Below, one piece after another: positions 715 through 48,258 of a DNA stretch of 64,000 nt (the stretch's first letter is position 1; every line of letters begins with the position of its first letter). Both the position numbers and the translations under genes were made by a program. The notes beneath the pieces are model-generated. The model was not told where the DNA came from. It made no database searches and was given only the letters and a program-made list of their open reading frames with translations. The stretch lies in contig CP089279.1 in NCBI GenBank assembly GCA_023920165.1, forward strand, positions 1 to 64,000. Reading direction: 5' to 3'. This DNA comes from Curvularia clavata (taxonomy: Eukaryota).

Positions 715-909
715 CGCTAAGCCTAATTCGGCACGAATCCAGGTGCGATTCACGGCCTCATATTGGTTAGGAGGTAGGCCTCGAAGGTATAATAATAGAT
801 CAATCGAAGCAACCCATAATTATCCTAGATTTTAATCCTAATCTACTATTCTTAAAACTATAATAATTTGACAAGAGTATACAAAGTAGACTGGTAAATG
901 GGTATAGGG

Positions 910-1130
910 CACCCAGCTCGGGTTAGGGTAGGGCTTGGGGCTATAGAGACTCGGGCTGGGGTAGGGCTAGGGCTGCTAAGAGTCGGGCTGGGGTAGGGCT
1001 GGGGCTGCTAAGAGTTGGGCTGGGGTAGGGCTGGGGCTGCTAAGAGTCGGGCTGGGGCAGGGCTGGGTTGCTTGGCACTTGGGCTGGGGTAGGGCTAGGT
1101 TACTAAAGAGTCGGGTAGGGGTAGGGCTAG
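910..1130. repeat. hAT left subterminal repeats (about 30-bp unit AGAGTCGGGCTGGGGTAGGGCTGGGGCTGCTA)
   Basis: About 6 imperfect tandem G-rich units. Confidence 0.85.
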
Positions 1131-1410
1131 ATATAGCCTGCTCAGCTAGGTTACGAATAACTTTAGACTAGAAAAGATTCGAATTTATCACAGTTTATTA
1201 TTACAGTAGCTTTGAAAAGAACTTTGAGATGAAACTAATAGGATTTATTACAGTTGACTATCACGGTAGCGCGCAGGGCGGACACGCTTTCGTAGAGGAA
1301 GTAGTAACTCGTCCTCTACCTTATCTACTTCCTCTAGAGATTCTTCTATATCCTGACTCTAACACTGACTCCCATACTCCTCTATACCTGCTAGGAGCTC
1401 AAACAAATTA

Positions 1411-3855
1411 CTAATATTATTAGAAAGTTAGATAGCTTCCTCTATAGGCTCGTCCAAGTCTCTATCAAGACTCTCCATCTTATTAGAATTCGCAAATTTA
1501 AGAATTATGAGTTGTCGAATCTTTTTAGCAGAAAGCCGATATCGACGATCGCTAATAACTTCCTTAGCAATACTAAAGACTCTCTCTACACCTACTTGCG
1601 CAATTAGTATAGCTAGAATATCTTTTACAACTTAGATAAGATGGGGGTACGTGATCTTACTTACTTTCTACCACTCTAAGATATCGATATATTCCCGTAG
1701 ATCAATACTAGGGCTACTTAGATATAGCTCCCCTTCTTAATAGGTTGGCCCTCTACTCTCCTTAATTTCCTAGCTTGAAGAATCTTAGCTTGAAAGAGAA
1801 ATCTAGCTTGATTATAATCGAAGTAAAGTAGGCCTTCAAAACTATTCTGTGCTTGATACCCTCCGAGGAAATGAGCTTAGTATTAACTGTATAATTTCTT
1901 GATTATTATATCGAGCTAGATAATCAAGAAACTGCTGCTAGTAGATATGCTTATCTTGAAACTCCCATATCTTATTCTATATCTTCTATTAGTATCTATC
2001 TGTGATAAATATCTGTAATAATACCTCGTAGGCTATAAGCTTTTGCGTTAGATCAAGAATCGTCGCGCAGTTGAATAAGAAGCCACGCTCTTTATTAGTT
2101 TTCGAGTAGTATTTACTCAACTTTGCCCTCTCTTTCGCCGCCGCAGCTCTTACTACTTGTGGCCAGTTGCTATTCTCTGAGTCTTCTTCTAAATCAACCT
2201 CCATCTAATCAAGAAAATTAAAAAGCTGATTATACATGAGCTAGATATATAGTATTTAAAGTTTTTAACTCTGACTTAGAGACATTGTTGCAGTCTTAAA
2301 ATGGCTAAGCATTTCAGTAACCATCTCAAGATGCGACCATTCTTGTGCAGATAGTCGTAGTCTCTTAAGATCCTGAGAATCAATATCAGTATTGTTGTCG
2401 GCCTCTGAGAGGTTTTCGGTATGGATAGGAACCCTTAACGCGATCTCATCTTTGAGCCATTTATTGATATATTGCCGAAACTTGACTGCGCGCTTACACA
2501 TATTATATGTCGAGTTCCATCGTATTCTAACATCACAGATAACACTAAGGCGTTTTTTTGGTGGTAGATCCCGTTGTGTTGCGAGAAACCGTTCGTATCG
2601 CTGAGGAGATGAGTCAACTATAATGCAGATTGCTCTAATCTATATTGTAGTTAGTATGTGATAAATAACTGTGATAAAAAATTCTTCCCTTACAAAGTGA
2701 ATTAGGGACTGAGATGTTGGCATCTACTTTATTAATCTGTTGTCTCTGCAAATCTTGTATATTATCTAACTCGGTAGAAGCTAACAGCCTTAAGTGCTGG
2801 ATAATATCCTGGACAACGAGGTTGATAATATAGACTAAGCAGGGAATAGTGTTTTTACTTGGACTCTAGCTTATACTAAGTTGTTGTAGACCTTGCTGAA
2901 GAGACTGCGTAAGAGTGCTATTATTACTGGCATTATCGCAAGTAATGGATAGCAATTTTTTTTGGAGTTCACTTCTAGAAAGAAGTTTTAGAACTTCATC
3001 TACTATTAAAGCTCTAGTATGTCTCCTATAGATCAGTATAAAATCTAAAAGTTTTTCTTTGAGTTGCTATTAAGTATTGATATAGTAACCTTTGATTACA
3101 AGGAAACTAAGATGGTTACTTGAAGCCTAACTATCTAATGCAAGTGATATTTTTGTTCCTTAGCCAAGATCATTAAGAAGCTCAGCTGAAGCCTTCTTAA
3201 ATTGTAACTTAAACGCTAGCTTGAATTTATAACGGCTAATAATTACAGCGTTGGGCTAGAGAAACTAGAGAAATCGTTGAAATGATGGCCGCTCAAGTGT
3301 TCGGAAGCTCTAGTAGTTATCAACTACTACTCTTACTAGTTCTTGTTCGTATGTCTTAGTTGAGTAGGCTGGTATTGCGCGAGGATTAATATTTATTGGT
3401 GGTGGGATACTTTGGCGGAGTGAGTTCGATAGCTTGTTGTATATAGGCGAAGAGATAAGCTGGCAAGTTTAGATTTAACGATATCTATAAAGATGCTTTA
3501 TACTAATATTTCCAGCTGATAGGTGCGCGAGTATATAACTGCAGTTCGAGCAGAAGATATATAGACGGCCAGTTAGGATCTCTACAGCCTTTCCAAAGTT
3601 TGCCCAGATTTGGCTCGTACGACAAGAAGAGCCCTAGTGTGGAACTGGCTTCGAAGGATCTCGGGCTTATGGTGTTTTATTCCACTACTCCTTCTAGTTT
3701 GAAATAATTGCTTTGTTCTCTTCATTGCTATTATTTTCAAGTACTGGATACTGGATGAGTGTAAGTGTGACTTTAAGACCACCTTTGTCTCGGTGTGGAG
3801 CATTTATCTTGAGATGCGCAAGGATATCTGGCGGTTCTGTAGAAGGCTTAGCCAT
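1411..3855 (-). pseudogene. hAT transposase, RIP-inactivated, at least 2 introns (about 1977-2024 and 2640-2693)
   Basis: Start MAKPSTEPP; BED-like IFCSNC..KHL; KISLALD, ITCDNASNN, RWNSTYNMCKRA; C-terminal dimerisation-type domain DILEW..YPHL..KDILAI..VGVERVFS..RYRLS. 3' end approximate. Confidence 0.9.
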
Positions 3856-4152
3856 CGTGAAGATTGTACCTGTGATAAATAACTGTGATAAATTAAAGTT
3901 ACTAGATGGACAAATATTATCTGTGGAAAACTGGATATGGTAGGAAGTTTTAAGTCCTCTAGCTTCTAGCATAGCTAAGATTGTCTAAAATACTAGTGTT
4001 GTTTGACATATGTCTGAAGTAGGTTTTATATAAGAGAAAGTTTGGATCGACACAGGGGTTATACTGTGATTATTGGCTGGGATAAACCCTGGCATAATAC
4101 TCTAAACCCTAACTACTAGAGCATTGTCAGAGATATGCTTGGACAGCCAGCA

Positions 4153-5861
4153 CTACTTAGACTTCTCTTCTTCAGCCTCTTCGTCTTGATCCTCAGCCTC
4201 CTCTATCTTAGCACTATCAGCCCCCTCTGGAGCCAAAAAGCTATCGTTACTACTATAGCCATCCTCATTCTCGTCTATAATCTTATCCTCGTTATTAACC
4301 TCTTCTTCATACTCGTTACTATCATAGCCTTCGATATATGGCTTATTATCCTTAAGACGCGTATCTGGATCAAACTGGTTGAGAATAGAAGTAGGCTTTT
4401 CTTGTCTATACTAGTTAGTTCTTGAATGTGATAATAAACTGTGATAAACTTACTGCTAGGAACTATCTATAGCAAGTTCTTTTTTTTTGGGAGAAAGGTT
4501 CTTGTAAAACTTGAGCTATTTATCTCGTGCTTGCTCGCTCTTAAAGGCGTTGTTGTTTAGCTTAGCCAATTCTCGAAGATATTCTTTGCGTATAAGTGAG
4601 TTAATAACCCCCTTTCGACTATAGAGACGAGCAGAAACGCGTAACCTCTTAGTAGAGGTATTAGACGGGGCGTCGCTAGAGGTAGTCTGGAGAATAAGCT
4701 GATGCCGTCTTTTGTCGATCTCATTCTGGATCTTGGACCATTTCGCGTGCACAGCTTGGAGAGCAAACGCCATCCAATTAGCTAATAACTGTTAGTAGAT
4801 GTCTGTAATAAAAGACTGTGATAACTTACTATTTTGCTTTTCTTTAAAGCGCTTAGATTCATGCTCTTTAAGATGGCTCTTTATAATTCTATTCTTCTTA
4901 TCCTCTCTGGCGGTCTTATACTATTCTTTCTCTTTGAGTGACTTAAGAAATTTCGCCCGAGCAGCGCGGTCAGCATCTTTGGCGCGTTAGAGAGCGGCTT
5001 CTTCCTTGGTACGTGACGCGGCGAGATCTCTCTGTGCAATAGCTCGAGCTGTGTTACTAAGCTGACCTTGATATTGGATTCGCAGACCAGTTGGACAACT
5101 CTTTTAGGAACCTCTATGTTACAAGTAACAAAGAAGGATCTCTCCTTGACGATGGCCGCAGGTAGGAGACCATTGGGCGACACGTCAGAAGGTAATGATC
5201 CCCGCGGAAGGGCGATCACATGACTGGCCTCAGGCCAAGACCGGGAAACCACGCTAGTATGTGAGGACACGCTCACACGTGACCAAAGTGACTTCAGGGA
5301 CTTCAGAGAACACAGGGGTTATTCCGTGAGGACAGTGAGGACAGGACCGGAAGCAATGGGTATAAGAATGTGTTGGATTTCATTATTACACTCGTTGTGG
5401 TCAACTCAGCAAAGTATCTTTCATAGTTACCTTTCATACTCAGATTGATACTAGTTATTCTATCTTCCAATAGGATTGGTTTTGTCTATCTTCCGTTAAT
5501 CCCTACCACCGAATCGCCAGACAACTACCTCACGGTATACTTCATAGAAACTGGCCTCGCCCTAACCCGGAATCTAGGCTAGGTAAGTATATTCCCAACT
5601 AACCAGTAGGACCCCGTGTAACACTCTAGATCCACGTTGCGTAATGATAAAATTGATTTTGTTTTGCTTATTTTTAAAGCCTTACTAACGTTAGTATTTA
5701 CTATGATAATAGACTGGGATTATTATTTTAGTAAGATCTGCCTACTTCTGCTTAGTAAAGTCCTTGGGTATTTGGGCAACGCGTGGAGGTGCTAGACCCT
5801 TAGATACGTTGCCATCAGCCTCTATCGTAGACTCGCGCTTGATTTCTGGCGTGCGCGGCAT
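4153..5861 (-). pseudogene. hAT accessory gene of unknown function (basic/coiled middle, acidic C-terminal tail), split by a solo LTR
   Basis: MPRTPEIKRES start; frame continues across the LTR insertion; introns 4782-4829 and 4406-4453 with GTAAGT/CTAAC/TAG; ends ..EEAEDQDEEAEEEKSK*. Confidence 0.65.
5117..5623 (+). mobile_element. Solo LTR (507 bp) nested in the hAT element
   Basis: TGTTACA...TGTAACA termini; 5-bp TSD CTCTA on both sides; related to the LTR fragment at 48259-48406. Confidence 0.9.
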
Positions 5862-6385
5862 TATTGACTATGATAAAGTACTGATATAACGTCTAGTATG
5901 GTGGGGGTAGGGAGGGGGGGGATAGTTGCTAAGAGAGAGTAGGAAGTTTGGTGATAGTCTACCTATTAAGGTAATTAGGGGTCCGTGCGCTCTGGATTTC
6001 GCGCTAGCGTTGGGCTAGCGAACAACATCTTTCATACAGCCAATATCTTGGATAATAAAAGTTAGAGTGCTTTAATTTTAGTCTTATTTGAAAGCCCTGG
6101 AGTAGCTCTATCTAATAAGCCAGTTATTATAGTATTTAATTACTGCTTCGTTGAGTTATGGCGATTTCTTACTAACTATCTCGCAGACCTTTAGCAAGAC
6201 TCTGGGTGATCTGTGCACTCACCTTTACCTTTATCTTTACCTACTTATATATCCCCAAAATTCTTAACTACTCTATAGCTAAGTATTTGTCCACCAATTC
6301 TCTTAATCTAAATCTAACTTTCCTAGCCTAACGCCAAATTTCTCAACTCAACCCTACTAGTTATTACAGAGATTTATCACGTACT

Positions 6386-7354
6386 ATGTTAGCAGTAGAC
6401 GAGGTGGGGGGGCCAGACGATGAGTCGTTTGAGGAGATGGTAGAACGGTTAAATGTGCTCCCATCGCCTGAAAGACAGGTGTCTTAGCTGCTGTCACCTC
6501 GCGAATTAGAAGCTCTTGAAGACGAATTTGAGGTTTTGGGAGCTTAGATGACTGGCAATCCTACTTTTTCTGCCGAAGGTGGCCAACTAAATCCGTAAGT
6601 TTATTATAGTAATTTATTATAGGAAATGGCTAATAAATGCTAGGACTACTACTTACGATTATCCCTCTCCGCCCCGTATCTTGACTAGTGGCTATCTTGT
6701 ATCTTTTGCGTACGTTTATCACGGTAATTTATTACAAGTAATAGCTAACTAATAGTAGGACTAGCACTATGTTCTATAGTGTAGGTGGCAAAACCGCTCG
6801 TAAGCAGCCAGTTAATTATAGGCCGCCCACGCCTAAGCCCGATAATGAGGATTAAGAGTCGGAAAGCAGCGAGGAAGACGAGTCCGGCCCTCCTACACCG
6901 CCTGGTGCTCAACTATCTACGTCTGGCGCCTCTAAGAGGCGTAGGTTTAAGTCTGGTAGTAAGTTTATTATAGTTATTTATTACAGTAAGCGACTAATAA
7001 TTACTAGCTATTATACTAAAAGAGATTAAAAGATTCTAGAAGTCTACTGATCTGCTTATTCTAAGGACTCGATTTGTAAAACTTGTTAGAGAGATTATGG
7101 GAGACGTATATCCGCAACACCCTCTATATATCTAGAGAGAGGCGTTGGAAGGTCTTTAAGAGGCTGCTGAGTATTTTTTGGTTAGATTTCTTGAGGGTAT
7201 GTTATATTATTACAGATATTAATTATAGCTGCTAACGGATCTAGACTGTAATATGAACGCTATCTATGCTAAGAGAGTTACTATTTAGAAGAAGGATGGG
7301 GATCTTGTTAAGCACTATCTTAATAGGCTTGGTATGGGTGGTATTAAGTACTGA
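6386..7354 (+). pseudogene. Histone H3-like (H3/CenH3 fold) gene inside the hAT element, 4 introns, RIP stops
   Basis: Spliced translation KRRRFKSGTIILKEIKRF*KSTDLLILRTRFVKLVREIMGD..EALEGL*EAAEYFLVRFLEDCNMNAIYAKRVTI*KKD aligns by eye to the H3 fold; tail GGKTARKQ; introns 6595-6643, 6710-about 6758, 6959-7007, 7197-7244. Confidence 0.9.
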
Positions 7355-7544
7355 GGGCTTTCATGATGGAGTATCAAGTACTGATGGCTTTTATGATTGA
7401 GGGATAGCTATAATTGAGAACTAGCTATATGCTAGAAGTTAAATGAAAGTTTTATAAGTTCTTAATTTTTAATTTACTACTGTGATAATTATGCGTGATA
7501 AGTCTTTGATATATACGGAGTATATATATATCTAATAACTAAGA

Positions 7545-7857
7545 CCCAGCATAACCTAGTACTAAGCAACCTAGCCCTACCCCAGCCCGCTTATTAAGCA
7601 ACCCAGCCCTGCCCCTACCCAACTCTTGACTGACCCAGCCCTGCCCCTACCCAACTCTTGACTGACCCAGCCCTGCCCCTACCCAACTTAAATGCCAAGA
7701 GTTGGGTAGGGGCAGGGCTGGGTTGCCTAATAAGCGGGCTGGGGTAGGGCTGGGTTAGCCAAGAGTTGGGTAGGGGCAGGGCTGGGTTGCTTAGTCATCT
7801 GACCCAGCCCTACCCCTACCCAACTCTTAGCAGCCCTGCCCCAGCCCTGCCCCAGCC
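7545..7857. repeat. hAT right subterminal repeats, partly arranged as an inverted repeat
   Basis: ACCCAGCCCTGCCCCTACCCAACTCTTG units at 7570-7690, inverted copies at 7697-7792, forward again 7801-7857. Confidence 0.85.
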
Positions 7858-8476
7858 CATTTACCAGTCTAATACCCTTCCTATTTTATAAATAAGATAC
7901 ATCTATTAGATAAGTTGATTTATTTTACTACGCTTGGTAGCTATGCTAATAGAACTTCGTTAACTAATACACCTTAGCTCGACTATATTTAGCTTTCGCC
8001 GCGAGCTACTATCATATGCTATAATAAGTAGTATACGGTACTTGGCATCTTGATCCTAATTAGTGTCCAGACTTCTCATCACACATTTGTGCTAGCTATT
8101 GCTTTAGCTAGTTTCAGCGTCTTGGGTAGAAACTTCTAGTCGACAAGATGAGCCATCTTCTTCTTAACTGCTCTTGACGCCTATCAACAACAGCACTACT
8201 CTGGCATGCCGAGCGTTATCACAGTGGCTACTTCACTATAGGTAGTTGTCGTCCACTCAGACGCCACTGCGGTTGCTGCTGCCTAGTGCTCGCGTGCTGC
8301 GCTTTCACCAATCACGCGCCCACCATTCACCATTCACTTGCGCGACGCGTTCATGAAGCACGCGTCCACAATCTATTCCTGCGCGTAATTTGCAACAACT
8401 TGCCACCAATATCTGTCTACCCAACCACTCAACTCAACTCTATATCCCCACTACTCTACCTCTCTTTATCGACGTA

Positions 8477-11400
8477 ATGGCGCGACGGAGGCCCCCAAAC
8501 CCAAATTTCAACTACAACACTACACCAAAGAAAGAAGACGACTTCTTTGCCAGGTTTTAGATCGATGAGGCAGATATGAAAGTGGATCTCAAAGCCCGAC
8601 GAAAGAAGGCCTTTTTATAAGTCAACCCTACCCTAGTTATATACCAAGGCGCCGACAAAGTCACTCTTCAAAAATAGCACGCCTAGCTTATATATGACGC
8701 GTTTTCTGAGCTTTGCGAAGCTCCAGAACTATGGAAGAGATCGGCAATAATGTGGTGGATGACCCAAGCCCGCACCAGCATCCAAAGGTCCAAGCCTAGT
8801 GCAGAAGCCAGCAAGCGCAAGCACTCTGCCACTCTAAGCGACGACGAGATGGATGTCTCACTGAAAAAGAGGACCTGAAATCGGCAATTCAAACATAGAT
8901 ACGAGACTGATTGAGAGGGCGACTTTTCGATTGTTGAATCGATTAAACCGTTGTACCGCGAGTTGATAGACCGACTTAAGTCCCTCAGTCTGTGTCCTTC
9001 GCAGCTGCCGTTAATACAAAGCTAAGCCAAGCCCTTTCGCGGTCCTACTTATGTTTGCTTTGTGATGCTTCCACAAAATAGCATTATTATAGACGATAAC
9101 ATTATCGCCAAGATTGAGATAGGGGAGATTTTGACCGACTCAACAGTCTCGTGGGAGAAACTCACTGGCGTAGCCACGAGTCTGGGTAACTGTAACGGAT
9201 TCTTCTTCACGGGAAAGTTATATATCGGCCCAAGACTAAACCAACGGTTCGCTATTTCGCACCCAGCTCTTCTGAAAACAGCTATAAGGGATTTCCCGCT
9301 AGGGTCGATACTAACCTGCACCACATTACCAATCTCTAAGCTTTGCCAACCTGCCGTAGCTATATCTTATCGACCGGAGTTAAGCTAAGCTAAACTGTAA
9401 GAAGCAATCAGCTTGCCTAGCGATATGATAGGCACTAAGTCGCTAGTGCCCAAGCCTCTCTAATCTAAAGCTGCATCACTAATATCTAGTCGATAGCGTT
9501 TAAACCAAGCGGAGCCGCAATAGGAAGAGACTAGCCTTTCCGGCAATAGGATGGAGGGGCTGTGCCAGAGCGCAAAGTTGGATTCTTCCTATAGGCGCCG
9601 CTCGCCAAGTACTCCATCTATATTGTCTACATTGGCATTCTGGAGGCTAGAAATAGGGTTGAAGAAGCTTCTCCGCCGGGGCTCGACATTAAATCATACG
9701 TACACACAGGATTAGCTAGAGGATTGAGATTTTTCCTTTAGGATGCATAAACGTCTAGGCCAATACAGTGCTCAACGCTGTGACCAAACAGACTACGGCT
9801 ATAAGAAAACTCCACAGCGCTACCCAGATTAAGCAGAACGAGAAAGAACACCTCTTTCTAGCTTCGAGTTAAGATGTCTCGATACCCCGCCCGCTTTATC
9901 CAGTAACGAAGGCGGAACTGGCGACGAGGTTATGATAGAGGACAATAACCAATAACCACACACAGACACTAGTAATAAGTGGATCTAAGGCCCTCAGCAA
10001 TCTGGCAACTCTACATAGACTCCTATAAATAAGTTAGCTCGGCTATACGACAACCATAACGACTAACAACCGAGTAATTAGGGCGGTGTATATACGGACT
10101 CTAGGTTTACCTCCACTACAACTACTATAAAGGACGGCAAGTTATCTGCTATTAAGTCAGGCCAAAATAAGCGTCTATTAAGCCTATCTTGCTAGAAGCT
10201 CGTGGGTAATAATAGGACAGATTTCATTATTATCAGCGATAACGAACCTGAGAGCTCGACGCGCGACTCTAGTTCCCAGCCACCTAGTTCAGAATTGGAC
10301 ACTATGCAGCCACAAATGCACGTCGATGAAGACGCAGATATAGAACTAGACGAAGACCTCAATACAGAGGAGGCAGACGCTAGGGCTGAAGCCGCGGTCT
10401 TAGAATACACCCTCTCGTCCAAGAGCACGCTTACAGCAAAAAAGTGCGCCGCGAGAATGGATTTGGATATTTTTAAGCGAGCCGTAGACGTTTTCTAATT
10501 AGCATTAGCATATCTACAAACTATAATAGGGGAGCCACGTATCTAGTTACTATCTAGCGTAGGACTATCGCCTGGCTATAGAGCCTTCCCCTACGAAATC
10601 TCTAGTGCTGTTAAGATATATATAGACGTGTTTAGAGAGAAGCGTAGCTATATTTTAGCCGACGAGATAGGGTTCGGAAAGACGCATATAGCACTCTTAA
10701 CATTCTAGACCAACTTTATAGCGGTGGCTTGGGAGCTCGGTAATATCCAAGAGGCCAAATTCCCTATTCTATCAAACGGCACTATCTATGGTGTTCGCCC
10801 CTGCGTCGGAGCTATCTTTATCTTAGCTAGCCTATAGGACCTAAAGGTGTGGCCCTAAGCATAGTATGATATATTTTATAATAGCGTAGCGGCGAAGCAA
10901 TTCCCAGAAGCTTGGCGTCCAAAGCTTATCATACTATATGCAGACGGCGCGCAATATACAGAAGAGTTTGGTGGGTCCGCTGTTGGTATATATCCGTCTA
11001 TAAGCTAATAAGACTGGGCAGAGATCCTACTACAACTAAACTGGAGCCAGTCTCGCTAGCCGACGTACCCGCTAAGCAAGAACTTTGATTGGGAATTTAT
11101 AGGACTCTCTAACTGGCCGAGGGTGGAAGGAGCTACCGAAGACTAACCGACTCTAAGCAGCACTCGATATGTCATTGTCTCAACAAATCAGTTATGGAGA
11201 AAGCATATTACGTGCACATGGCAGCCAAGCAAAGGCTATAGGGGGTTGGAGAAGGAGTTAGCGTTCCACACGAATGAAAAATAGAGGAAGCCAACACGCC
11301 AAAATATATAACGAGAGATTGACTTATAGTTCCGAAGCAGAAGTAGCGGGGTGGATGGCACTGGGCCTACCCAGGCCCGCCGCCCTGTCAAAATTAAGAG

Positions 11401-12868
11401 CAAACCACCTACATCCAATTAGAGGATTTGCGATTTGGCTTATGCAGTCTGGGTCGTTATCGACGAACTGCACGCGGCCAGCTCCATAAATACACTTACT
11501 TATACCGAAGTGGTAGAGGCTTTTTGGCGCAACTGCAAGGAACGTGACTAGCTAGGCGTCACCAAGATCACAGGCTCCGCCCTTGCCAATAGCATTAATA
11601 CCACCCTATTATTCGCGGCCAGGGTGCTTAAGCGCTAGAGGCCAAGCCACAGCGTAGTCTAGTCTCTATCAACACTCGAAACGTCCTAGTTTTTAAAAGT
11701 ATAGAAAGAGACGTAAACAATTTTTAAGCTTTCTATGAAGAAGTCCCCCCAGAGAAGACAAAAATGGATTGAGAAGGCGATAGCTTGACAGCTAGCCATT
11801 TTGGAAATGAACAAGTACTTTTCTCGCATAATTCAGCACTTCTTTATTCTACGGGATTATAATACTGATAGCCTGTAGAGGGAGAGATTAAGACTGGTCA
11901 ACGCAAAACAAGACATCAGATATAAGGAAGTTCAGTTCGAGCTAGAATTCTACAATATGCTCATCGCATGGGAGAAGAAGGTGAGGGCGGCTGTTAAAGG
12001 AAAGTGGGAAGATGCCAAGAGGGAATGGGAGGACTAAGGCCGTTCCGGCGAGATGCCTCGACAGCCAGCTATGGATAAGGCTGATCTAGCCGCGTATATG
12101 ACTGTACGAATTCTGGGCAGTTTCCCAAATCTTATCCATGCTATTAACAAATGGCAGACAGCCAACCCCGATAAGCAACCTATTATAGGGCACCAGTGCG
12201 AGTGGGGCGAGGCACTTGGTGGTAGCAATCCAGTTATTGCGCAGGCGTTACAATCTGACGATAACCTCTGGGCGTCTTTTCTGTGGGACATAGCCAAGAA
12301 CGCCTGCCGAGGATCTGCCAAAATAGATTTCACTCTACGTCAGGCCAGGTCAATGGTTGGCCAGCAGACTACCATCTCTCGCCCCAACCCTGCGAGCTAC
12401 TAAAGTAAGTATGTCGTGGCTAGTTCTTTGCGGCTATCGCGCGCCTTACTATAGTGCCGATTGGTACAAGAATTCAGAGATGAGAGCGTGGTAAGCGTCA
12501 CCAGCTCTAAAGATAGAAGAGACCGTGTTCCGCTCTGGTAGGACGTCAGCGGCCCAGTATGGATCATAGTGGCTGGCTTACAAGTCATCTGTCAGTCGAT
12601 TACTTTGGTGGAAGGAAACATCATACACGTGTTAGAGCCAACGCCTCGAAACAATGACGCGGTTCAAGCGGCCAATCGACAATACAGGATTGGCCAGCAA
12701 TAATCAAGTGTGGAAGTAAGGTGGTTAGTTTATAGAGATTCGTTTATCAAGTCAAATATAGTGAAGAGAAATAATGCAAAAAATTGGTTTATAGAGAGAG
12801 TAAAGGGATCTAAAATTAAGGAAAGCAGAGTAATGTATCAAATAGAGGAAGAGAACATAGCCGTCTAG
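8477..12868 (+). pseudogene. Large intronless SNF2-like (SF2) helicase gene, copy 1, RIP stops
   Basis: ORF fragments at 9062, 10202, 12053 share one frame; ILADEIGFGKT, VVIDELH, ICQSITLVEGNIIHVLEP..QAANRQYRIGQ; paralogous to 32783-36817. Confidence 0.8.
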
Positions 12869-14199
12869 GGCCGAAGAATGCGTAATGGGATTGTCGCCAG
12901 TTTAGACATAGTATGTATAGTAGAGAAGCAAGCCATTTACCTTATCTAGCTTTGTCTAAGCAGGTTTTCTTGACTGTTTCTAGTGATGAGCATAATCTCT
13001 AAAATATGGTACTGAGGAGTTAGCTATAGTTATTTTAACGCCTACGATTTTGTTCTTTAGACGGCACTCGTCCCTTATGATTAAACCGCTCTGTGGCTGC
13101 AGGGCAAATCACCACCCGGTTAGTTGCTACGGGAAAAGCTGGCCAAATTGCGGTAGATAGAACCCTTCTACATATTGGAAAGCAATTGCTGCTATTGCTA
13201 TTCTTCGGATAGCGGTCATGGTGGTGGTAGAGTTATCATATAGTAATTGTGAAGCGTCGATTACTTAATAGTGTAGGGGGTAGTATTGTATCGTCTAAAC
13301 GGTTGCACGCACTGACCACCTACAGTACACTGCAGTGGCTGACTTGAGGTACCGCGCGCCTGCTAGTCAGAACTGCCTCTAAGACTGCTATCCCTTTCCG
13401 ATTTTATATTGCGTATGAACTTAGCCTATTAATATAAATCTACTATAAATTACCCCTATTTCGTATCAATCACATACCTAAACTAGAAATTCTAGATAAT
13501 TACTATATTCTACTACACTAACGCTATATACCTAGCTCTTAGCCTTCTCCTAAGAACAGTCCATATCCTCATTATTGTCTGATATGACGCCATCGCCTAC
13601 ATCTACCTCTAGCTCTGGCAGCTTAATGCTATAATTAGGACGTAATTGATTCTATTTACAGAGAATCTTCTACGATTGCTCCATGTGCCATTCTGTTAGA
13701 ATACCGTCCTCAAGGATCTAGTTCATACGCTGAGCGACTATCGCCTCGGGTTCAAGGGCGAAAACCCAGAGCAGGAGCCAGAGCAGGAGCCAGAGCAGGA
13801 GTAGGAGCAGAATGGAGATGACGAAGGAAGACATGCGGTCGCGCTACGCTATCATATGGCTACGTATTGATATTTACTCTTGCAATCTTTGTAACTAGCT
13901 AAAGATAGTATTATTTTCTCTCTACAATCTGCTACTATTCTATGCAAATTCTGTCAATTGGAGACTATCGTCAGCAATTTGCTACGATTTTGTGTAATAC
14001 ACAAGGTTTGCAAATTTTGAATAATGACTACGTTTCGTAGAATTCACTAAAGAAAACGATAGAAACTAGAAATGTCAAGGTCCTTTGGTGTTGCAACCGT
14101 GTAAAGTAGTGGTAGCACGGTTTGGCGATTTGCAGCAAATCCAATTAAAGCTTGTTTTGGCTGAATAGAGAGGCAGCGAGTAGATTTAGGCTTATACAA

Positions 14200-14919
14200 C
14201 TAATTACGAGAGTGCTATGTCCACACACCACCTGACGCATCTTTGTTGGGTGGCCATGGAAGCTTACCAGCCATAGTCGCCTCTACCCACTGCGCACTCC
14301 GTCCTATGCACTCTATCTGGTTAGGACTATAACTAGTCGGGGGTCCTTGGAAATATACGCCTCGCACCCGTGGCTAAGACTGAACTAATTGATGTACTAT
14401 ACCCGTCCTATTTACTCTATTAACTCTTTTAATCTTGCTAGTATAGTCGTTTGCATCGTATACTGGATCGTACACCCACACTTCATTATTTAGTCGCGCT
14501 ATGTCTACTGCATGCCAGTTATTAAAGCCTTGAGATTGTTCTGATGCGCTTGACATGCTAGAAGTGACGACACTAATAGTCCCACCTTGTGTCTAGTTCT
14601 TAATAGCGGTGCTGAGTGTAGCGCCGCAAGCATACTCCTTTTTTACTTCTTTAGAGAGTCCCTCTTAGTTTACCTATGCTGTCTTAATAGCGCCGGTTCG
14701 ATATGTCGCGACAACAGGGCAGATTTTGAGAGAGGTTGCAGGGTATGCACTAGGTAGCTAGGTGTTCAAGTAGTCTGTCATCCTCCCAAAGCCAGCAGAA
14801 GGGTCGAATTGAAGGCTTGGTGGGAGTAGTTAAGCATACTAGGCAGCAAAGGACTAGGATAGAGGTGCCGTAGGTGTATACGGAGGGGCATCCACTTATA
14901 GGGATTGGCGGTTACTCAT
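14200..14919 (-). pseudogene. About 240-aa gene, possible Ulp1/adenain-like (clan CE) cysteine protease, RIP stops
   Basis: One frame from ATG 14919; WHAV..VWVYDP..FQG..QIECIG gives His-Asp-Gln-Cys order. Confidence 0.4.
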
Positions 14920-15078
14920 TCTGGTTGAGTATAAGGCTTGAAGTAGGAGTAAGCTGGTAAAAAATGGTTATATGAGATTCTGAACGTAGCTGCATATTAA
15001 ATGCTGCATCCACTATTTATATTGTTTTAATGTGTTCGTTCTTTAATATAGGCGCTCTTATATTTACAATAGAGTGAT

Positions 15079-15230
15079 AGCTTTCATATTCACAGCTCTT
15101 ATATTCACAGCTCTCATATTCACAGCTCTCATATTTACAGCTCTCATATTCACAGCTCTCATATTCACAGCTCTCATATTCACAGCTCTTATATTCACAG
15201 CTCTCATATTCACAGCTCTCATATTCACAG
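15079..15230. repeat. 15-bp minisatellite (CTCATATTCACAGCT)n, about 10 copies
   Basis: Direct tandem array; variants are C>T only. Confidence 0.95.
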
Positions 15231-15775
15231 GGGAGCAGATGCTCTCTCCCTACAAAGCCTCAGACCTAAAAGGCTGACTCAGCTGTTATCTGCGCCACCT
15301 TTTGCTATGTTTCGCTATCTTTGCTCTCTGTTTCTCTTTGTTTTTGCTGCCAGGCTGTAGGCTGGAAAAACTCATTAAGTAGCGCTCTGATTGCCGTTCA
15401 AGTCTTTTTGCCTGATTTTCTGCTGTAATTAGCTCTATCTCTATGGTGTATTACCAAGACATCATCTGTACTTAGCTCAGTCAGTGTCTGCTATCTTTGT
15501 TTACTTAAGTAGATCGCTGTCGGTTACTATCTTCCTCTCTGTGCTACTTATACTGCGTGAAGTCGGCCTTATATGCACGTATGTATATATATTAGGAATA
15601 GATCCTATATTTAAATACTTTTTTTGACATGTTCCGGTGGCTAAAAATCTTTGATATTTAGGTATATACTAGAATATAATTCGCACTTTCTAATGCTATT
15701 CTTATTTTCTTCTAATGCTTATTATAGTACAAGAAATTGGTGAGTTCTTTACATAGCGATTCACTATAATATAAC

Positions 15776-15984
15776 TGTTAGACTGTTAGTGGCGTGAAGG
15801 TACAGCACGAGATAGATGAGAGAGAACTATGCTTTAACAGCCATGTATTCACGAGACGAATCGCTATCGAGCACCTCTAGCGATCGTGGAGGCTTTATAG
15901 CCTTAGGTAAGCCCTAGCTGACTAACTAGCGTGAAGAAGGAGGGAATTGGACCAACATGTCCCAATTTGGACCAGGTCCTGACA
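15776..15984 (-). repeat. 3' LTR of the chromovirus
   Basis: Direct repeat of 22897-23105; preceded on the minus strand by AAGAAGGGAGGTAT. Confidence 0.97.
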
Positions 15985-16577
15985 ATACCTCCCTTCTTAG
16001 GGTGCAGCTGTCCCAGCTGCGCAACTTATCATGCTTGCCGCCCAGTTTGAGCGATTACTGGGTGATGCCGCCGTGTGGGTTGGAGGGTGTATTTTACTTG
16101 CTCACCGCCCCAGGGCTATGACGTCATAATAGCGGAGTTTTGCGCTGCTGCCTAGCCGACTGCCCCACTTTGGGCCAACCCGGCCCATCAGGGTACTCCT
16201 GGGCAGCGCCAAGAGTCACGTGACGCGCTAATTTAGTGCGGATCCAGGGATACAATAGCCAGTTTTTGACTAAGCCCAGTACACCCCACAGTCCACCAAC
16301 CCCACTTTGGTAAGTAGACTCCCATTTTGTGGGTCTTCTCAGTTTGGGCCCGACACCTTCCACCCACGGTCTGTTTGCAACAGTTTGGCCCAATTTGGGC
16401 CAGTTTGCAGTCGACCTTGGTTTTGTTGCCTTTTTCTGAGGTTCTTCCCCTGGACTTGGAGTTTTCTGCTGACTTTTCTTTTTAGGCTGTTTCCTCCCAT
16501 ACGATCCATTTCGCGACAGATTCGACCGATTCGTCCCAAACACCCCCAAATTGGGGCCTTCAAGACCCACTTGAACC

Positions 16578-17643
16578 ATGACGAACGCACTTGGATCCGT
16601 CAACCGCAGTACGGTGTCAAACCTGTTCGTACGCAAGGGCCAGAGGTCTTACTACGCTTGTGTGTGCTGTCTGAACGCCTTCAGGGATAATGAGCCCGTT
16701 ACTTTTGGCAGAGCGGGTTGCGTTATGTTGGACATCGACAATCCTGAGGTAGCTGAGGCTTGGTCTGGCTACAAGGTTGAACCGGAGTCTGGCGGTATGC
16801 CTAGGCAGGTGATGAAGTGTCTTCGCTGCTCTTACATCAACCGTGTCTGTTTTGCGGTAAGTTGCCCTGTTTTGCTCTGATTTGGTCCAATTTGGAGCTA
16901 AATGAGTGGTTAGGTGCCTCCTCCCGACAAGTTCTCCCCCGACTGGGTGAGACTTGGCCAGCTCATTGGGAAGGTTGAGGATGCCTTCCATGCCATTGAC
17001 AAAGATATCCCCGAGGGTGCCAATGAGGCTGAAGTTCGTGCTGAGCGCAGGGAAATGTACGAGGTGGCCGTTACTAGGCTTAGTATGTTCAGCAAGCCTA
17101 TTGTTGAGTCACTCAAGAAGTAAGTGATCCAATTTTCCTAAATCTGGCCCAAATTGGACTAATTTGTGTAGGTTTGAGCCTCATGCTACTCATCTGTCTC
17201 TTTCCTCTGGTGCCATCGAGGAGGAAGATGATCCCCGCTCTGGTGTGAAGACTTCTGCCCTTGGCCGCTCCAAGAAGGATGAAGAGGTCAAGAGGAAGGC
17301 TCATGAGATCGAGGTGGAAACTTTGGTCGAGGCAAGGGTCAAGAAGTCCAAGTATGGCTCTGGTGGGCGCAAGAAGGAGGTTTGTGATCCTTTTCCCCCC
17401 TATTTACGCCAAATTGCCCCAATTTGGACTAACTTGGTTCTTTAGGTCAAGGTTGCCGAGGATGTCACTGATGAGCTTCAGAAGCGCATCAATGACATTG
17501 ATGAAGAGATTTTGCAAAAAATGTCTGAGAAGGAGGGGGCCAAGGGTCAAGCCAAGAGGAAGATCACCAATGACATCAAGAACTTGGAAAAAGCCAAGGC
17601 AAGGCTTAACAAGGAGTACGAGGCCGCAGTTGCCGGTGATTAA
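16578..17643 (+). CDS. Antisense accessory gene within the chromovirus, 4 exons, 296 aa, Cys-rich N-terminus and charged coiled-coil C-terminus
   Basis: Exons 16578-16856, 16914-17119, 17172-17379, 17446-17643 join into one open frame; introns are GT..AG with CTAA(C/T/A) branch sites; CVCC..C..CLRC..C motif. Confidence 0.85.
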
Positions 17644-17931
17644 GGGTGGTTGGGTCTAGTTTTGTCCGTTTTGGCCCAAATTGGGTCAGTATGGGCTATG
17701 GTGGTTTTCTTCCCTTTCATATGAGATACCCAGGGCATTAGGATGGAGGTGATAATTGAAATTCTCTTTTCTTTACTTTTCCATTCCTTGGTTTTTGTTG
17801 TGCAATGTCAGTTCAACATGGACCAATTTGGGCCAGGTTGCCCTAATCAGCTTATGCCGTTAAACACCTATAAAACCCTTTGGGGAAAAAAGTAGGTGAA
17901 GGTACATGTGCTAATTTGGCTCCTATTGGCC

Positions 17932-20900
17932 CTATTTGGCCCGTTTTGGCCCGCGTCTGCGTCGAGGGACCTGATTTGATTTGTTCCAGAACTCTTGAAG
18001 CGTTTTCTGGGTAACATTGGCGGCTGGCTCCCATGTGTTTTCAGAGTCGGGGTATCCAGTCCATTTCACTAAGTATTCCCACTGATCGTCCTTGTTCTTC
18101 CTATGTCCCACTATTTTGTCCACGAGGTAGACATCGTCGCCTGTCTCGCCTAGTTCGTGTTGTGTTGGGACTTCAGGATGTGGTATATCACCTGGGGGGT
18201 GATACTGCTCTAGTAAGGATGCATGGAACACTGGGTGTACGTTTTTTAGGCCAGGCATATCTACTTTAAATGCTGATGGGCCGATTTGCTCAGTTATTGT
18301 GCCTGGGCCAACGTATTTCCAGTCGATCTTCTTCTTTGGTCGCAGGGATTTAATATGCTTATTAGATAGCAGTACTTTATCCCCTACCTTAAAAGGAATG
18401 GGTTGTCTTTTCTTATCTGCGTGCCGTTTTTGGTACTCTTGCGCTTTTAGAATATTGTTCTTGCACTCTTGTTGTATTTCGATTATTCTTGAGGCAGTAC
18501 TTGCCGCTAGGGGGTTTTCGCCCCCAGTTTGGGCGTCTTTGGGCCATTCTGCGCCTCTTGGGTGTATGCCGTTGCATGCTTGGAAGGGGGTGACCTTGGT
18601 AGTCGAATGTACACTGTCATTGTACGCGTATTCCCCTACTGAGATCCATAATGCCCAGTCGTCCTGCTCTAGGGAACAGTAGCAGCGGAGGTACTGTTCT
18701 AGAGTCTGATTTTGGCGTTCAGTCTGGCCATCTGTTTGTGGGTGGTATGCCGAAGTAAGTACACGTTTCGAGTTAAGGTAGTGAAGAAAGGTCTTCCAAT
18801 GGGTGGAGTTCATTAAAGGGCCTCTATCTGATATGATTCGGCGTGGTACGCCATGGAGACGGATTACTTCGCGCAACCATGCCTGAGCTAGGTCTACTCC
18901 GTCCCAATTGGACCGTGCTGGCACGTAATGGGCCATTTTGGTCAGTCTGTCGACTATCACGAGGATTGCGTCGTATACTACGCCTTGCAGTTTGCTTGGT
19001 GGCAATTCAGTTATAAAGTCCATTGTTACTTCCTCCCAGGCTCTATTGGGTGGTGGTAATGGTGCAAGGGGCCCGTATGGCAGGTGCCGTTTCGGGGTAG
19101 ATTTTTGACAGATAAGGCATGATTTGCAGTAGTCTTCCACGTCTTTCCTCATGCCAGCCCACTTGTAGTGGCGCGTTAGTTTCTCTAATGTGCGTCTTGC
19201 GCCAAAATGTCCAGAAAGCGGGTCGTCGTGACCTTGTTTTAATGCTGCTGCTTTTTCCTGTGCCGTCTTGGGCACGGTTGGGCCAGAGTGGCCCTGTTTG
19301 AGCCTTTGTGGACTTGGTTTGGCCACGTCGTCTTCTTCTGAGCTACATGAGTCCGAAGTGTATTCGTCCGTCTCTGAGTCGGCCTCTTGAGCCAATGCTG
19401 CATGCCTCTGGTCTTCATGTTGCTTCGCTGCTGTATTCTGCCGTCCTTGTGATCGTGTGGTGGTAGCTGCAGCTATAGCAGTCCCTTCGGCATTGAATTT
19501 GAGCAGATGGCGTAGCGATGGCACATATGCGCTATTATTCTTCTGCTTTGGCTCTTGGGCGGCTTTTATGTAGTCGGGTCTGCGCGATGGGCCGTCGGCG
19601 GGGTTTGTTTTCCCAGGTTGGTGTACAATTGTGAAATCAAAACCTGATAGGGCTAAGTAAGACCGTACCTGGCGGTGATTCAGTGTTTTGGTTTCCATGA
19701 ACCACTTCAGGTTTCGATAGTCAGTAATTAGATCAAAGTGTATCCCATCAAGATATCTTCGCCAGTGTTGGAGACTAGCGACGATAGCTAGTAGCTCTTG
19801 GTCATGCGTGTCATAGTTGTACTCCGCGGCGATTAATTTGCGCGAGTAGAAGTCTACGGGTCTCCAGCAAGCCTCTTTGGGCACGTACTGGCTTAGGATG
19901 CCAGCAATCGCTCCTCCCGACGCATCGACCTGTACTCTAGTCTGATTGTCTGGATTAAAGTGGGTTAGGATAGGTACTGCCGTAAAGGAGTTTTTTAGCG
20001 TCTTAAACGCGCTCTTGGCGTTTTCGTCTAGAATTAGCAGTACGCTTTCCTCTTTTCGCTGAGCTTTGCCCCCTTTGGCGGCGTTCGGCTCCTTTTTCAG
20101 TAACTCAGTTAAAGGCAGTGCGATTCTGGAGAAGTTAGCAATGAATCGACGATAGTAGTTCATGAAGCCTAGAAACACGCGGACATCGCGCACTGTACGC
20201 GGTTCTGGCCATTCTTGGGCCGTTTTGGCCCGATCTGGGTCGATACTTATACCCTCGGGGCTAACTGTGTAGCCAAGGAACTCAGTGTGTTGGGTGTGCC
20301 ATTCACACTTCGAAGTCTTCAAATACAGCTTGGCTTCGCGCAATCTGTTTAAGACTTCGCGCACGTGTCTCTCGTGCTCCTCTTCTGTGTTGGAGAACAC
20401 CAGAATATCGTCCAAATACACAATACAACTCACATCTACCAATCCTGCAAGGATATGGTGTATGTACGCCTGAAATTGTGCAGGAGCGTTTGTAAGGCCA
20501 AAAGGCATCACAGTATACTCGAAATGGCCGTATCTGGTGCGGAAGGCTGTCTTCCACTCGTCTCCCTCCTTAATCCTCACCCTATGATATGCTTCTCGGA
20601 CGTCTAGCTTGGTATAGAATTTTGCCTCAGCCAATCTATCCAAGGACTCCGTAATCAAGGGTAAAGGGTGACGGTTTTTGAGCGTTATGTTGTTTAGACC
20701 TCTATAGTCCACACATAACCTCATCGTGCCGTCTTTCTTCTTCGCGAAGAGTATTGGTGCGCCTGCTGGCGACTTCGAATGTCTAATCCACCCTCTCGCG
20801 AGATACTCACGCAAGTAATCCCGGAGTAGCGCTAACTCGCTCTTCGAGAGCCCATATAGCGGCTGATGTGGTGGCGTGGTGCCTTCTTTCAAGGTTATCA

Positions 20901-21584
20901 CCAAATCGTGCGGGCCATGCTCAGCAAGGCACTTGGCATCCTCTTCCGAGGCCAAATCCGCAAAGTCCTCGTACTGTGGTGGCAACTGAGGCAACTTGGC
21001 TTGATCAGGGCCAACCTGGGCGTTCTTGGGCTTCTCCAACCCCTCCCAGTCCTCTTCCTCGTCGCTTGGGTCCCAACCCATCACAGTGGACACTTTGAGC
21101 GCGTAAACGTCCGTCGTGGGCGTTCGGAGTGTTTTCTCAAACTCTTCGGCGCTTTCTGTCGCGATTTTCTCATATGAAGCCCTATCTACATATTTCACGC
21201 CCCTAAATAGCACTCGACGCGACCGGAGGCTTATTTTGGGCTTGTAGAAGTCGACCCAGGCATACCTAAGCATACTGGGTAATGCTTCATTTCTGTCACC
21301 ACAAAAGGTATATTCTGGAATTTAGTCCTCCCTCTTGTGTCTGTGACTTTCATGGTCACCTCTGTAGTGCCATAAATCTCAAACTCCGCGCCGCTTAAGG
21401 CTTCTGCCACTAAGTTCGGTATAGGAGTTATTGTTAAATCGTGATCCTTGGCTTGGTGGATTGAGAGTAGATTTAGTTGAGACCCTCCATCTATCAGCGC
21501 TTCGAGTGGATCTTGGCCAATTTGCACCGTTATGGTCAATAGTGGGCTAGGTTTGCTGAACATTGCTTCGCGAAGTGTCTTCAA
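17932..21584 (-). CDS. pol: Pol polyprotein (protease, RT, RNase H, integrase, chromodomain); one-base frameshift near 21259
   Basis: ALIDGGS protease; YLDD RT; VDASG RNase H; HHCC integrase zinc finger; YLVKWTGYPDSENTWEP chromodomain. Protease frame is -1 relative to gag. Confidence 0.95.
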
Positions 21585-21631
21585 GTCCTCTTCTAGCTCT
21601 AGCCTTGCAATATGGGCGGAGAGTAGGGCTA

Positions 21632-22864: not shown

Positions 22865-22896
22865 CTCGTAGGTGTACTTGAGGAGAGCGATTCGAA

Positions 22897-48230: not shown

Positions 48231-48258
48231 CTTGTATGATAGCTAGTTATAACGTAAG

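Follow-up and report, generated by a model that had tools for sequence, protein, structure and literature searches.

A decayed hAT transposon of Curvularia clavata from a family that appears to carry a histone H3-like gene with an acidic partner as conserved cargo

The 64,000-nucleotide stretch of Curvularia clavata DNA analysed here (the window; contig CP089279.1, positions 1 to 64,000) contains at 887-7871 a hAT DNA transposon of 6,985 bp bounded by perfect 16-bp terminal inverted repeats (TIRs). We assign a probability of about 0.9 to its being a subtelomeric, RIP-inactivated copy of an autonomous cut-and-paste element, interrupted by a solo-LTR-like insertion and belonging to the transposon family, first described in Pyrenophora tritici-repentis, that carries a histone H3-like gene (H3L); the explanation of the element as a whole is held with only slightly less confidence. 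By itself the window copy is the remnant of an element type already published, and it adds chiefly a new host genus. Its relatives recast that type. In them the histone gene and its partner appear as conserved, selected cargo, not as a transduplication that happened by chance in a single wheat pathogen, and the mapped non-coding parts of the family are interspersed with a conserved motif.

Structure and decay of the window copy

The left TIR, an exact match to TAGACTGGTAAATGGG at 887-902 on the forward strand, has its perfect complement at 7856-7871 on the reverse strand (0 mismatches). With up to three mismatches allowed, the window has five matches to the TIR, where 0.68 would be expected at random. 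The 8-bp flanks of the element disagree (ATACAAAG versus ATACCCTT, 4/8 identical), leaving the target duplication unmatched in this copy. An 8-bp duplication is supported in this window by a sibling non-autonomous element (MITE) of 391 bp at 324-714, whose TIR is one mismatch away from that of the element and whose own target duplication, CGCTAAGC, is perfect. In live copies the transposase would excise and insert the element at the 16-bp TIRs with 8-bp target duplications, an account which beyond the MITE duplication draws on established hAT biology. Subterminal arrays of a G-rich 32-bp unit lie at both ends. The left array (910-1137, forward strand) consists of five direct repeats, each with a G-quadruplex-type (G4) motif, the G4 pattern matching at 920-1067; the right arrays (7552-7850) hold the unit in both orientations as inverted repeats with G4 matches, and include a further copy of the left-array repeat family at 7693-7792.

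The sequence-only reading had described a hAT transposon between perfect TIRs in which a spliced H3-fold gene stands head-to-head with a gene ending in a long acidic tail, and this architecture is borne out. The transposase pseudogene (1254-3855, reverse strand) has three exons (about 3855-2695, 2640-2026 and 1977-1254); read through its stops, it matches Pfam Dimer_Tnp_hAT (PF05699) with an E value of 3.7e-14. Its exons share 40-55% identity with those of the intact transposase in a relative, L046, which matches the same family at E 4.5e-19, and its C-terminus aligns to a P. tritici-repentis chimaeric protein, P0005. The hAT-like_RNase-H match in L046 is below threshold (E 0.0022, 18.6 bits versus a cut-off of 27), and the Pfam search, L046 included, gave no zf-BED match. 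Putative DDE-type motifs can be seen by eye.

The central ORF, also a pseudogene, runs on the reverse strand in five exons from an ATG at 5861 to a stop at about 4102 and ends in an acidic exon (34% D+E). The gene aligns over its full length to P0001, a 332-residue E. turcica protein, tblastn of P0001 onto the window covering residues 1-63 and 65-332. Homologues are found in E. turcica (84% over one exon), B. sorokiniana (50%) and P. tritici-repentis (43%). The gene thus has an acidic C-terminal region, but the D/E run is not the true end of the protein: the stop after ...EEEKSK corresponds to Q in the intact relative, and the frame here continues for a further 17 residues.

Divergent from the central ORF, with its first coding stretch from 6387/6392 on the forward strand, is the H3L pseudogene (about 6387-7354), which has five exons (6387-6594, 6644-6709, 6756-6958, 7008-7196 and 7245-7354). 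Exon 4 matches Pfam Histone (PF00125) at E 1.2e-9, better than the curated cut-off, and all three of its in-frame stops fall on Q of H3. The closest intact proteins to the genes of the element are those of Exserohilum turcica. H3L is 77% identical to E. turcica SETTUDRAFT_99795 (E 1.8e-31) and aligns along the 263-residue E. turcicum model P0161 (PF00125, E 1e-29), with which it shares about 100 extra N-terminal residues. The best PDB matches are H3, H3.3 and CENP-A chimaeras. The N-terminal tail retains GGK(T/A)(A/P)RKQ, the tails of the relatives L046 and L008 retain ARTKQ..KSTGGK, and departures from H3 are found in the C-terminal helix and in loop 1, whose length, counted on the sequences, is 17 to 20 residues among members. 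H3L encodes an H3-type histone fold with an H3-like N-terminal tail.

Contigs from the same species, from runs tentatively classed as RNA by software (X15, X19 and X20), splice six of the nine predicted introns. Runs X15 and X19 contain the central ORF joints 5683->5730, 4782->4836 and 4405->4454; run X20 contains the transposase joints 2641->2695 and 1972->2024 and the H3L joint 6956->7015. None of these six joints is present in the DNA run X1, and two of the three probable-RNA runs cover H3L with unspliced contigs. The introns look old rather than newly inserted, because one intron position, FLE|D, turns up again in relatives and in further fungal genes of H3 type.

All three genes are pseudogenes in the window copy, with about 30 premature stops in the transposase and seven each in the central ORF and H3L, mostly of RIP type. 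Compared with intact relatives, 52/64 amino-acid mismatches in the central ORF and 43/82 in H3L are of the kind that C>T/G>A changes on the window side would produce. The probable-RNA contigs have C/G where the window has T/A (T>C 127-157, A>G 43-75), opposite changes being fewer (C>T 9-12, G>A 7-13), which points to live copies in the species. The differences between the X1 DNA contigs and the window are almost all transitions. The central gene is in addition split by a 507-bp solo-LTR-like repeat (5117-5623). The ends of this repeat are TG..CA and form a 7-bp inverted pair (TGTTACA/TGTAACA), and the 5-bp target site CTCTA is duplicated on either side of it, at 5112-5116 and at 5624-5628. Summed depth over this repeat is 5,000-16,000 versus 260-660 elsewhere, and X1 contigs join 5111->5624 across it; without it the element measures 6,473 bp. 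The window copy is dead and does nothing.

The double motif

A 22-nt double motif, TTATCACAG-N4-TTATCACAG, occurs in the nine mapped introns, in the leader of each gene and in both end regions. RIP variants included, 15 copies lie within 1185-7514. Given as the position at which the first 9-mer opens, they stand at 1185+, 1245+, 2013-, 2669-, 3883-, 4439-, 4816-, 5714-, 5881-, 6361+, 6601+, 6716+, 6965+, 7207+ and 7493-. Nine are intronic, just past the 5' splice site; another three precede the three ATGs by 3-14 nt; the remaining three are in the end regions, facing inward. The stretch that separates the divergent central ORF and H3L genes (5862-6386) contains double motifs at 5868-5889 (-), 6124 (+) and 6361 (+). 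When up to two mismatches were allowed to tolerate RIP, 18/18 matches in the 64-kb window fell inside the element and 0/18 in the 57 kb of host DNA. The intron motif noticed in the sequence-only reading is thus real, and it is family-wide: in 66 instances from six relatives, conservation per motif column is 79-98% (65% in the last one), compared with about 35% in flanking sequence. The introns do not fit the pattern of introner-like elements, which in Dothideomycetes give rise to many short, near-identical introns in host genes: the 22-nt core alone is shared, and in the window the motif is confined to the transposon, where it also occurs outside introns. We found no published description of the double motif, and it is absent from the available part of the Manning 2013 account (PMC3538342).

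The motif is unlikely to be needed for transposition itself, because two derivatives are without it: the sibling MITE, in which the RIP-tolerant search of the window found no copy, and an internal-deletion derivative in run X1. Tentatively, we suggest that an old hAT lineage, spread through Pleosporales and possibly further, may encode its own module for chromatin or expression, made up of an H3 variant, a KGRP/acidic partner and the 22-nt motif as address. Having recognised the motif, the partner would recruit the variant histone or activators to the element, and the packaging or regulation of the transposon would then be separate from that of host chromatin.

The placement of the motif would also suit a family-specific intron and leader signal acting in RNA, read by the central protein or a host factor and coordinating the splicing or stability of the three pre-mRNAs, a possibility that we regard as doubtful. 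In the window each of the nine intronic copies directly follows the 5' splice site in the sense orientation, the leader copies are likewise sense, and relatives show the same placement; the inward-facing end copies would, as read from the sequence, be antisense to them in transcripts reaching the ends. Dispensability for mobility, as in the two derivatives, also fits such a signal. Yet the motif is present in the end regions and downstream of the central ORF stop, one copy lies antisense inside the transposase coding region, and no RNA-binding domain is evident by Pfam in the three proteins.

It is conceivable, although again less than probable, that the double motif is a subterminal binding site for the transposase, the internal copies being autoregulatory or decoys wherever coding allows. 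Ac and Hermes have subterminal transposase-binding repeats. Here the copies at the two ends are inverted, and the right end of L046 carries six tandem 13-nt units. Leader copies stand 2-32 nt ahead of the transposase start codon in the window, L003, L007 and L046, where binding could repress transcription. Against this, the MITE with its perfect target duplication is free of the motif, the G-rich 32-bp arrays are better candidates for end-binding repeats, and the strict sense orientation of the internal copies would go unexplained.

The cargo genes in intact relatives

Metagenome contigs contain at least three intact elements (L003, L007 and L046) which share about 35-65% protein identity and carry all three genes in one order with open exons; TIRs related to that of the element are present at the ends of L003 and L007. 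Family genes are carried by 12 of the 117 metagenome loci with an exact double motif. Where it could be computed, dS being saturated in most pairs, dN/dS came to 0.25-0.34 in H3L, 0.23 in the central ORF and 0.10-0.14 in the transposase, values that place H3L under constraint rather than neutral evolution. The common order, the open exons and the dN/dS below 0.35 in diverged relatives argue that H3L and the central gene are old, conserved cargo and no recent accidental capture. Such conservation in intact elements appears new relative to the available parts of the published accounts.

The central protein is distinguished by three conserved blocks, KGRP(T/I)N, SDECEEE and (D/E)FEGFSD, and by a tail with 34-46% D+E and 5-9 aromatic residues in 8/8 family members examined. 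We take its KGRP to be AT-hook-like; neither the Pfam AT-hook model nor any other Pfam family matched P0001-P0003 at E up to 1. Foldseek gave no match at E up to 0.001, and VIA returned generic coiled coils alone (Z up to 7.6). Within the proposed module the protein may be an element-specific adaptor, a suggestion that we advance with caution. The AT-rich double motif would be recognised by its conserved N-terminal part, which contains KGRP, together with a helical hairpin, and its acidic, aromatic-studded tail would engage H3L or the transcription machinery; element copies would thereby gain their own chromatin or expression state.

It seems rather unlikely that the central protein is instead, along the lines of the sequence-only reading, a chaperone devoted to H3L or a factor for its deposition, the pair replacing ordinary nucleosomes on the element. 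Core histone genes in fungi are paired, adjacent and divergent, as H3L and the central gene always are; both genes are under purifying selection, and the acidic tail has been kept throughout. Acidic tails are, however, typical also of transcription activators and HMG-type proteins, Pfam, Foldseek and VIA detected neither a known chaperone motif nor resemblance in sequence or fold to a chaperone family, and contact between the two proteins would be putative. That the two genes are functionless passengers of a one-off, decaying transduplication is very improbable: all genes are dead in the window copy and the P. tritici-repentis case was framed as transduplication in the available part of Manning 2013 (PMC3538342), but both genes keep their order and have open exons in three or more diverged intact elements, there are homologues in three named genera, their dN/dS is 0.23-0.34, probable-RNA contigs are spliced, and 35-65% protein identity argues against one recent lineage.

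With a defined protein pair and a 22-nt site, the question raised in 2013, whether transposon-borne histones alter chromatin and why they are kept, becomes testable.

Comparison with known systems

Classical hAT elements such as Ac, hobo, Hermes and Restless have short TIRs, 8-bp target duplications, a C-terminal dimerisation domain, subterminal repeats and MITEs. The present element has the TIRs, the dimerisation domain, the subterminal repeats and a MITE in common with them, an 8-bp target duplication being seen at the MITE, but carries three genes rather than one. It differs further in the motif array running through its whole length; Pfam detected no BED finger.

In Mycosphaerellaceae, hAT elements of about 9.5 kb carry one or two intronless H3-like copies, which their authors read as transcript capture (Dhillon et al. 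2019, Mob DNA, PMC6710886). According to the available part of that study, which included Setosphaeria turcica and Bipolaris sorokiniana, there was no amplification in these two species. The Mycosphaerellaceae elements resemble the present one in their hAT type and H3-like cargo and in that all extra copies are RIP-inactivated; they make 8-bp target duplications, as seen here at the sibling MITE (PMC6710886). They differ in that the available part of the study reports no central ORF and describes H3-like genes without introns (PMC6710886), whereas H3L here has introns.

The nearest known system is that of P. tritici-repentis, in which a hAT element of about 5.6 kb with a transposase, a central ORF and an H3-like gene was described (Manning 2013, G3, PMC3538342). 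The precedent named in the sequence-only reading is thus genuine, whilst the three-gene layout, which had been thought possibly new, was already published for this species in the accessible part of that paper (PMC3538342). The three-gene content between TIRs is common to both elements. The P. tritici-repentis proteins P0003, 43% identical to the E. turcica orthologue, and P0004 are homologous to the central ORF, and tblastn onto the window gave E 1e-31 for P0003 and 2e-23 for P0005. The 274-residue P. tritici-repentis proteins (the chimaeras P0005-P0007 and P0009) match the central ORF and carry Dimer_Tnp_hAT, the N-terminal half of P0005 aligning to 5112-4684 of the window and its C-terminal half to 1676-1257. 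Judged by these alignments, P0005 corresponds exactly to the central-ORF/transposase chimaera described in the part of Manning 2013 available (PMC3538342). Membership in the family is supported by the central ORF, by the C-terminus of the transposase and by the layout as published; among 30 named H3L-related representatives none is from P. tritici-repentis. As far as that account goes, short non-autonomous derivatives occur in both systems. The P. tritici-repentis copies are described there as nearly identical and open, unlike the RIP-dead window copy, and their length of about 5.6 kb compares with 6,473 bp here minus the nested insertion. A further difference is the N-terminal extension of about 100 residues in the H3L of the window. 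Finally, the cargo was framed there as capture, by 'transduplication' (PMC3538342), whereas the relatives examined here point to an old, conserved cargo accompanied by a family-wide motif.

Setting, ends and decay of the element

The window begins at a chromosome end, with (CCCTAA)n telomere repeats at 61-178; its first 60 bases are presumably nanopore adapter and barcode left over in the assembly, which they resemble. The element (887-7871) sits within the first 8 kb. Its terminal inverted repeats are, as had been claimed from sequence, perfect: the 16-mer TAGACTGGTAAATGGG is matched exactly at 887-902 on the plus strand and 7856-7871 on the minus strand, and the window holds five matches at up to three mismatches against 0.68 expected. 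Two further matches bound a sibling non-autonomous element of 391 bp (the MITE, 324-714), which lies between two identical copies of an 8-bp duplication, CGCTAAGC; an 8-bp target duplication is a hallmark of hAT insertion. No target duplication was found for the main element, the flanks of which (ATACAAAG and ATACCCTT) are unlike. A G-rich unit of 32 bp is repeated in arrays just inside both ends. The 64-kb window has 14 G-quadruplex-type motifs outside the telomere repeats, and all of them fall within 887-7871, 13 in these arrays and one at 5903 in the divergent promoter region; the ends of two metagenome relatives, L003 and L007, bear GGGTTGGGG-type arrays.

Elsewhere the window contains a Ty3/gypsy-type LTR retrotransposon (15776-23111), apparently young, with two 215-bp LTRs that are 100% identical. 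Its pol frame is open over 1,129 aa (RT, RNase H, integrase, chromodomain), and its gag frame includes a zinc knuckle. A further LTR-like piece (83%) lies at 23776-23862. Ten 15-bp units, AGCTCTCATATTCAC, stand in tandem at 15049-15258, and subtelomeric host genes at 38065-38922 and 45651-47429 comprise a DEAD/Helicase_C helicase fragment and an MFS transporter.

The transposase gene runs from about 3855 to 1254 on the minus strand. Its read-through, on which about 30 premature stops were counted, contains a hAT dimerisation domain (E 3.7e-14) and shares 40-55% identity with the transposase exons of the metagenome locus L046, which are open. The other two genes carry seven premature stops each. 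Compared with intact relatives, the central open reading frame (ORF) shows 52 mismatches compatible with C>T/G>A in the window, four compatible with the reverse direction only and eight with neither; for the histone H3-like gene (H3L) the counts are 43, 13 and 26. The window copy is damaged by RIP-type mutation, and its H3L is truly diverged besides. The dinucleotide indices are only mildly RIP-like (TpA/ApT 1.38). The window copy is dead.

Other copies exist in the species. In a DNA sequencing run (X1), 1,544 contig pieces fall on the element in four identity classes, and almost all their differences from the window are transitions; in one contig 971 is linked directly to 7802, which marks it as a derivative with an internal deletion. 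Where the window reads T or A, contigs from three further runs (X15, X19 and X20), the RNA status of which is a tool's guess and not on record, read C or G, and thus derive from copies with fewer mutations. Six of the nine predicted introns are bridged by joints in these contigs (1972->2024, 2641->2695, 4405->4454, 4782->4836, 5683->5730 and 6956->7015), whilst X1 DNA contains none of these six joints. As a counterpoint, X15 and X19 contigs across H3L are unspliced. Live copies are probably transcribed and spliced.

The H3-like gene and its acidic partner

The spliced H3-fold gene perceived in the sequence-only reading is present: H3L runs from about 6387 to 7354 on the plus strand in five exons, and exon 4 exceeds the Pfam Histone threshold (E 1.2e-9); in alignments with H3 and H3/CENP-A chains, all three of its stops face Q. 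A word-indexed protein search with exon 4 gave no match; an exhaustive search retrieved E. turcica SETTUDRAFT_99795 (P0011, 162 aa; 77% identity, E 1.8e-31), and all five exons have counterparts in an E. turcicum model of 263 aa (P0161). None of the 30 representatives looked up was recognised as a P. tritici-repentis H3L. Descent from CenH3 was ruled out, since the longer loop 1 is lineage-specific and the relatives keep an H3-type tail.

The central gene extends from an ATG at 5861 to a stop near 4102 on the minus strand. A one-exon search matched a single protein, E. turcica SETTUDRAFT_24621 (P0001, 332 aa, 84% identity), which aligns to the window over its entire length. P0001 and P0011 are each recorded on a contig of 2,108,160 bp. 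The partner had been described as ending in a D/E tail. The acidic tail holds, with 34-46% D+E in the family members examined, but it is not the C-terminus: the stop which closed it is Q in P0001, and the frame runs 17 residues further.

A 507-bp insertion (5117-5623) splits the central gene. Its ends are TG..CA and it is accompanied by a 5-bp duplication, CTCTA; its summed depth is 5,000-16,000 against 260-660 over the remaining element, and X1 DNA contigs run directly across its site, so that other copies must lack it. We read it as a solo LTR; its copy number, ends and duplication, together with the DNA copies lacking it, rule out an intron or a MITE as the source of the 512-bp gap in the ORF. 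The repeat, of very high summed depth in X1, is also covered by probable RNA contigs, and a 72%-identical piece lies at 48257-48356. One X20 contig omits 203 bases (4596-4798) that are bounded by GT..AG when read on the plus strand, opposite to the sense of the central gene; it may derive from antisense RNA that has been spliced, or from a variant with a deletion.

The full P0001 query matched nine proteins: one from B. sorokiniana (COCSADRAFT_141976, 50% identity) and, from P. tritici-repentis, two of 354 and 325 aa (43% and 40%) and a group of 235-274 aa with Dimer_Tnp_hAT. Conserved blocks comprise RG..G.(R)KGRP(T/I)N...RA(V/I)AQR, a helical region, SDECEEE(V/I)D and a terminal (D/E)FEGFSD. 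AlphaFold, with a 13-row alignment, yields a model of mean pLDDT 69 in which a long helical hairpin (78-185) and a small helical domain (198-262) are predicted, with the KGRP region and tail disordered. No family was matched in Pfam, no usable match was obtained in a protein atlas search (the atlas's own model has pLDDT 0.49), Foldseek against the PDB gave none at E up to 0.001, and a wide VIA search returned generic coiled-coil rows only, without an informative fold match. A co-fold of P0011 with P0001 scored 0.00 and, having been run without alignments, controls or H4, counts neither way.

Relatives and selection

An exact motif scan of metagenome contigs yielded 121 stretches representing 117 loci, 12 of which carry family genes. 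L003 represents a complete element of 5,902 bp, its terminal inverted repeats being TAGGCTGGCAAAAAGG, and the end of L007 has the window's own repeat core. L036 is 99.9% like L046; a search for the terminal repeats of these two did not locate them. In L003, L007 and L046 the transposase, central ORF and H3L are each present in window order. Their exons are open, and protein identity among them and with the window is about 35-65%. The prospect that other members might lack the genes is thus not borne out.

Synonymous sites are saturated in most pairs, and dS was incomputable in nine of 15. Where it could be computed, dN/dS is 0.25-0.34 for the H3L fold exon, 0.23 for the central ORF and 0.10-0.14 for the transposase, and the H3-like gene does not therefore evolve neutrally. 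From sequence comparison, then, this is a hAT element with a conserved, selected cargo and a conserved motif array.

Further occurrences have been observed. A 25.8-kb metagenome contig of 57% G+C (L008, the same as L026) holds a central-ORF homologue and H3L head-to-head at 3365-5469, with no transposase match nearby and only degenerate TTATAACAG-type motifs; the pair may be non-autonomous or domesticated. H3-like proteins elsewhere (P0058, P0073, P0082 and P0064) bear the C-terminal signature typical of the family, N.NA.HAKR.TIQ..D, exactly or in looser form. Bearers include a Colletotrichum truncatum cluster of 15 members, four members on different contigs in Boeremia exigua, and single copies in Parastagonospora nodorum (6,674-bp contig) and Alternaria gaisen, which suggests that histone-carrying elements are spread more widely.

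The double motif and published elements

The shared intron motif noticed at the outset is real. Every predicted intron (46-54 nt) carries the double motif TTATCACAG-N4-TTATCACAG, or a RIP variant, immediately downstream of its 5' splice site. Further pairs are placed 3-14 nt ahead of each of the three start codons and, oriented inward, in both end regions, where the left-end copy overlaps the last transposase codons, RY(C/R)D. With RIP-tolerant matching (up to two mismatches), all 18 window matches are inside the element and none is in the MITE. L003, L007 and L046 have 14-18 double motifs apiece (up to four mismatches), and the right end of L046 has six tandem 13-nt units. Across 66 instances in six relatives the columns are 79-98% conserved and the last 65%, against about 35% in the flanks.

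We put at roughly 0.3 the reading that the central protein would recognise the double motif, coupling it through the acidic tail to H3L or to transcription. We liken KGRP to an AT-hook and read the centre of the motif as an AT tract. That the motif is an RNA or splicing signal, as its place behind each 5' splice site might imply, is likewise a tentative proposition. Equally tentative is the reading of the motif as a binding site for the transposase. The motif is absent from both the MITE and the deletion derivative, and this argues that it serves genes rather than transposition. These two readings and that of recognition by the central protein are not mutually exclusive. Introner-like elements were ruled out by a membership test, in which the shared part proved to be the motif core, confined in the window to the element. 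It is the family-wide conservation of gene triad and motif that merits following.

Literature searches with the motif strings gave no relevant paper among those examined, and searches on Exserohilum, hAT and histone H3 found none on the window element. A term search of Muszewska 2017 (PMC5751038) did not find 'histone', and nothing relevant was retrieved beyond Manning et al. (PMC3538342) and Dhillon et al. 2019 (PMC6710886). The latter, in the text available, describes other hAT elements with H3 copies in Mycosphaerellaceae; these are intron-less, in contrast to the five exons of the window H3L. S. turcica and B. sorokiniana were examined there, and the event is not reported for them in that text. 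The three-gene layout, thought perhaps to be new, is already in print: the portion of Manning et al. (PMC3538342) available to us presents it for a P. tritici-repentis element, together with a 2.3-kb derivative encoding a chimaera of central ORF and transposase. A P. tritici-repentis protein of the Dimer_Tnp_hAT group (P0005), aligning by its first half to the window central gene and by its second to the end of the window transposase, is exactly of this chimaeric type, and this alignment together with the published chimaera and layout places the window element in the P. tritici-repentis H3L family. The original observation is real, and with this element a known family gains a new member, a dead one, in a further genus.
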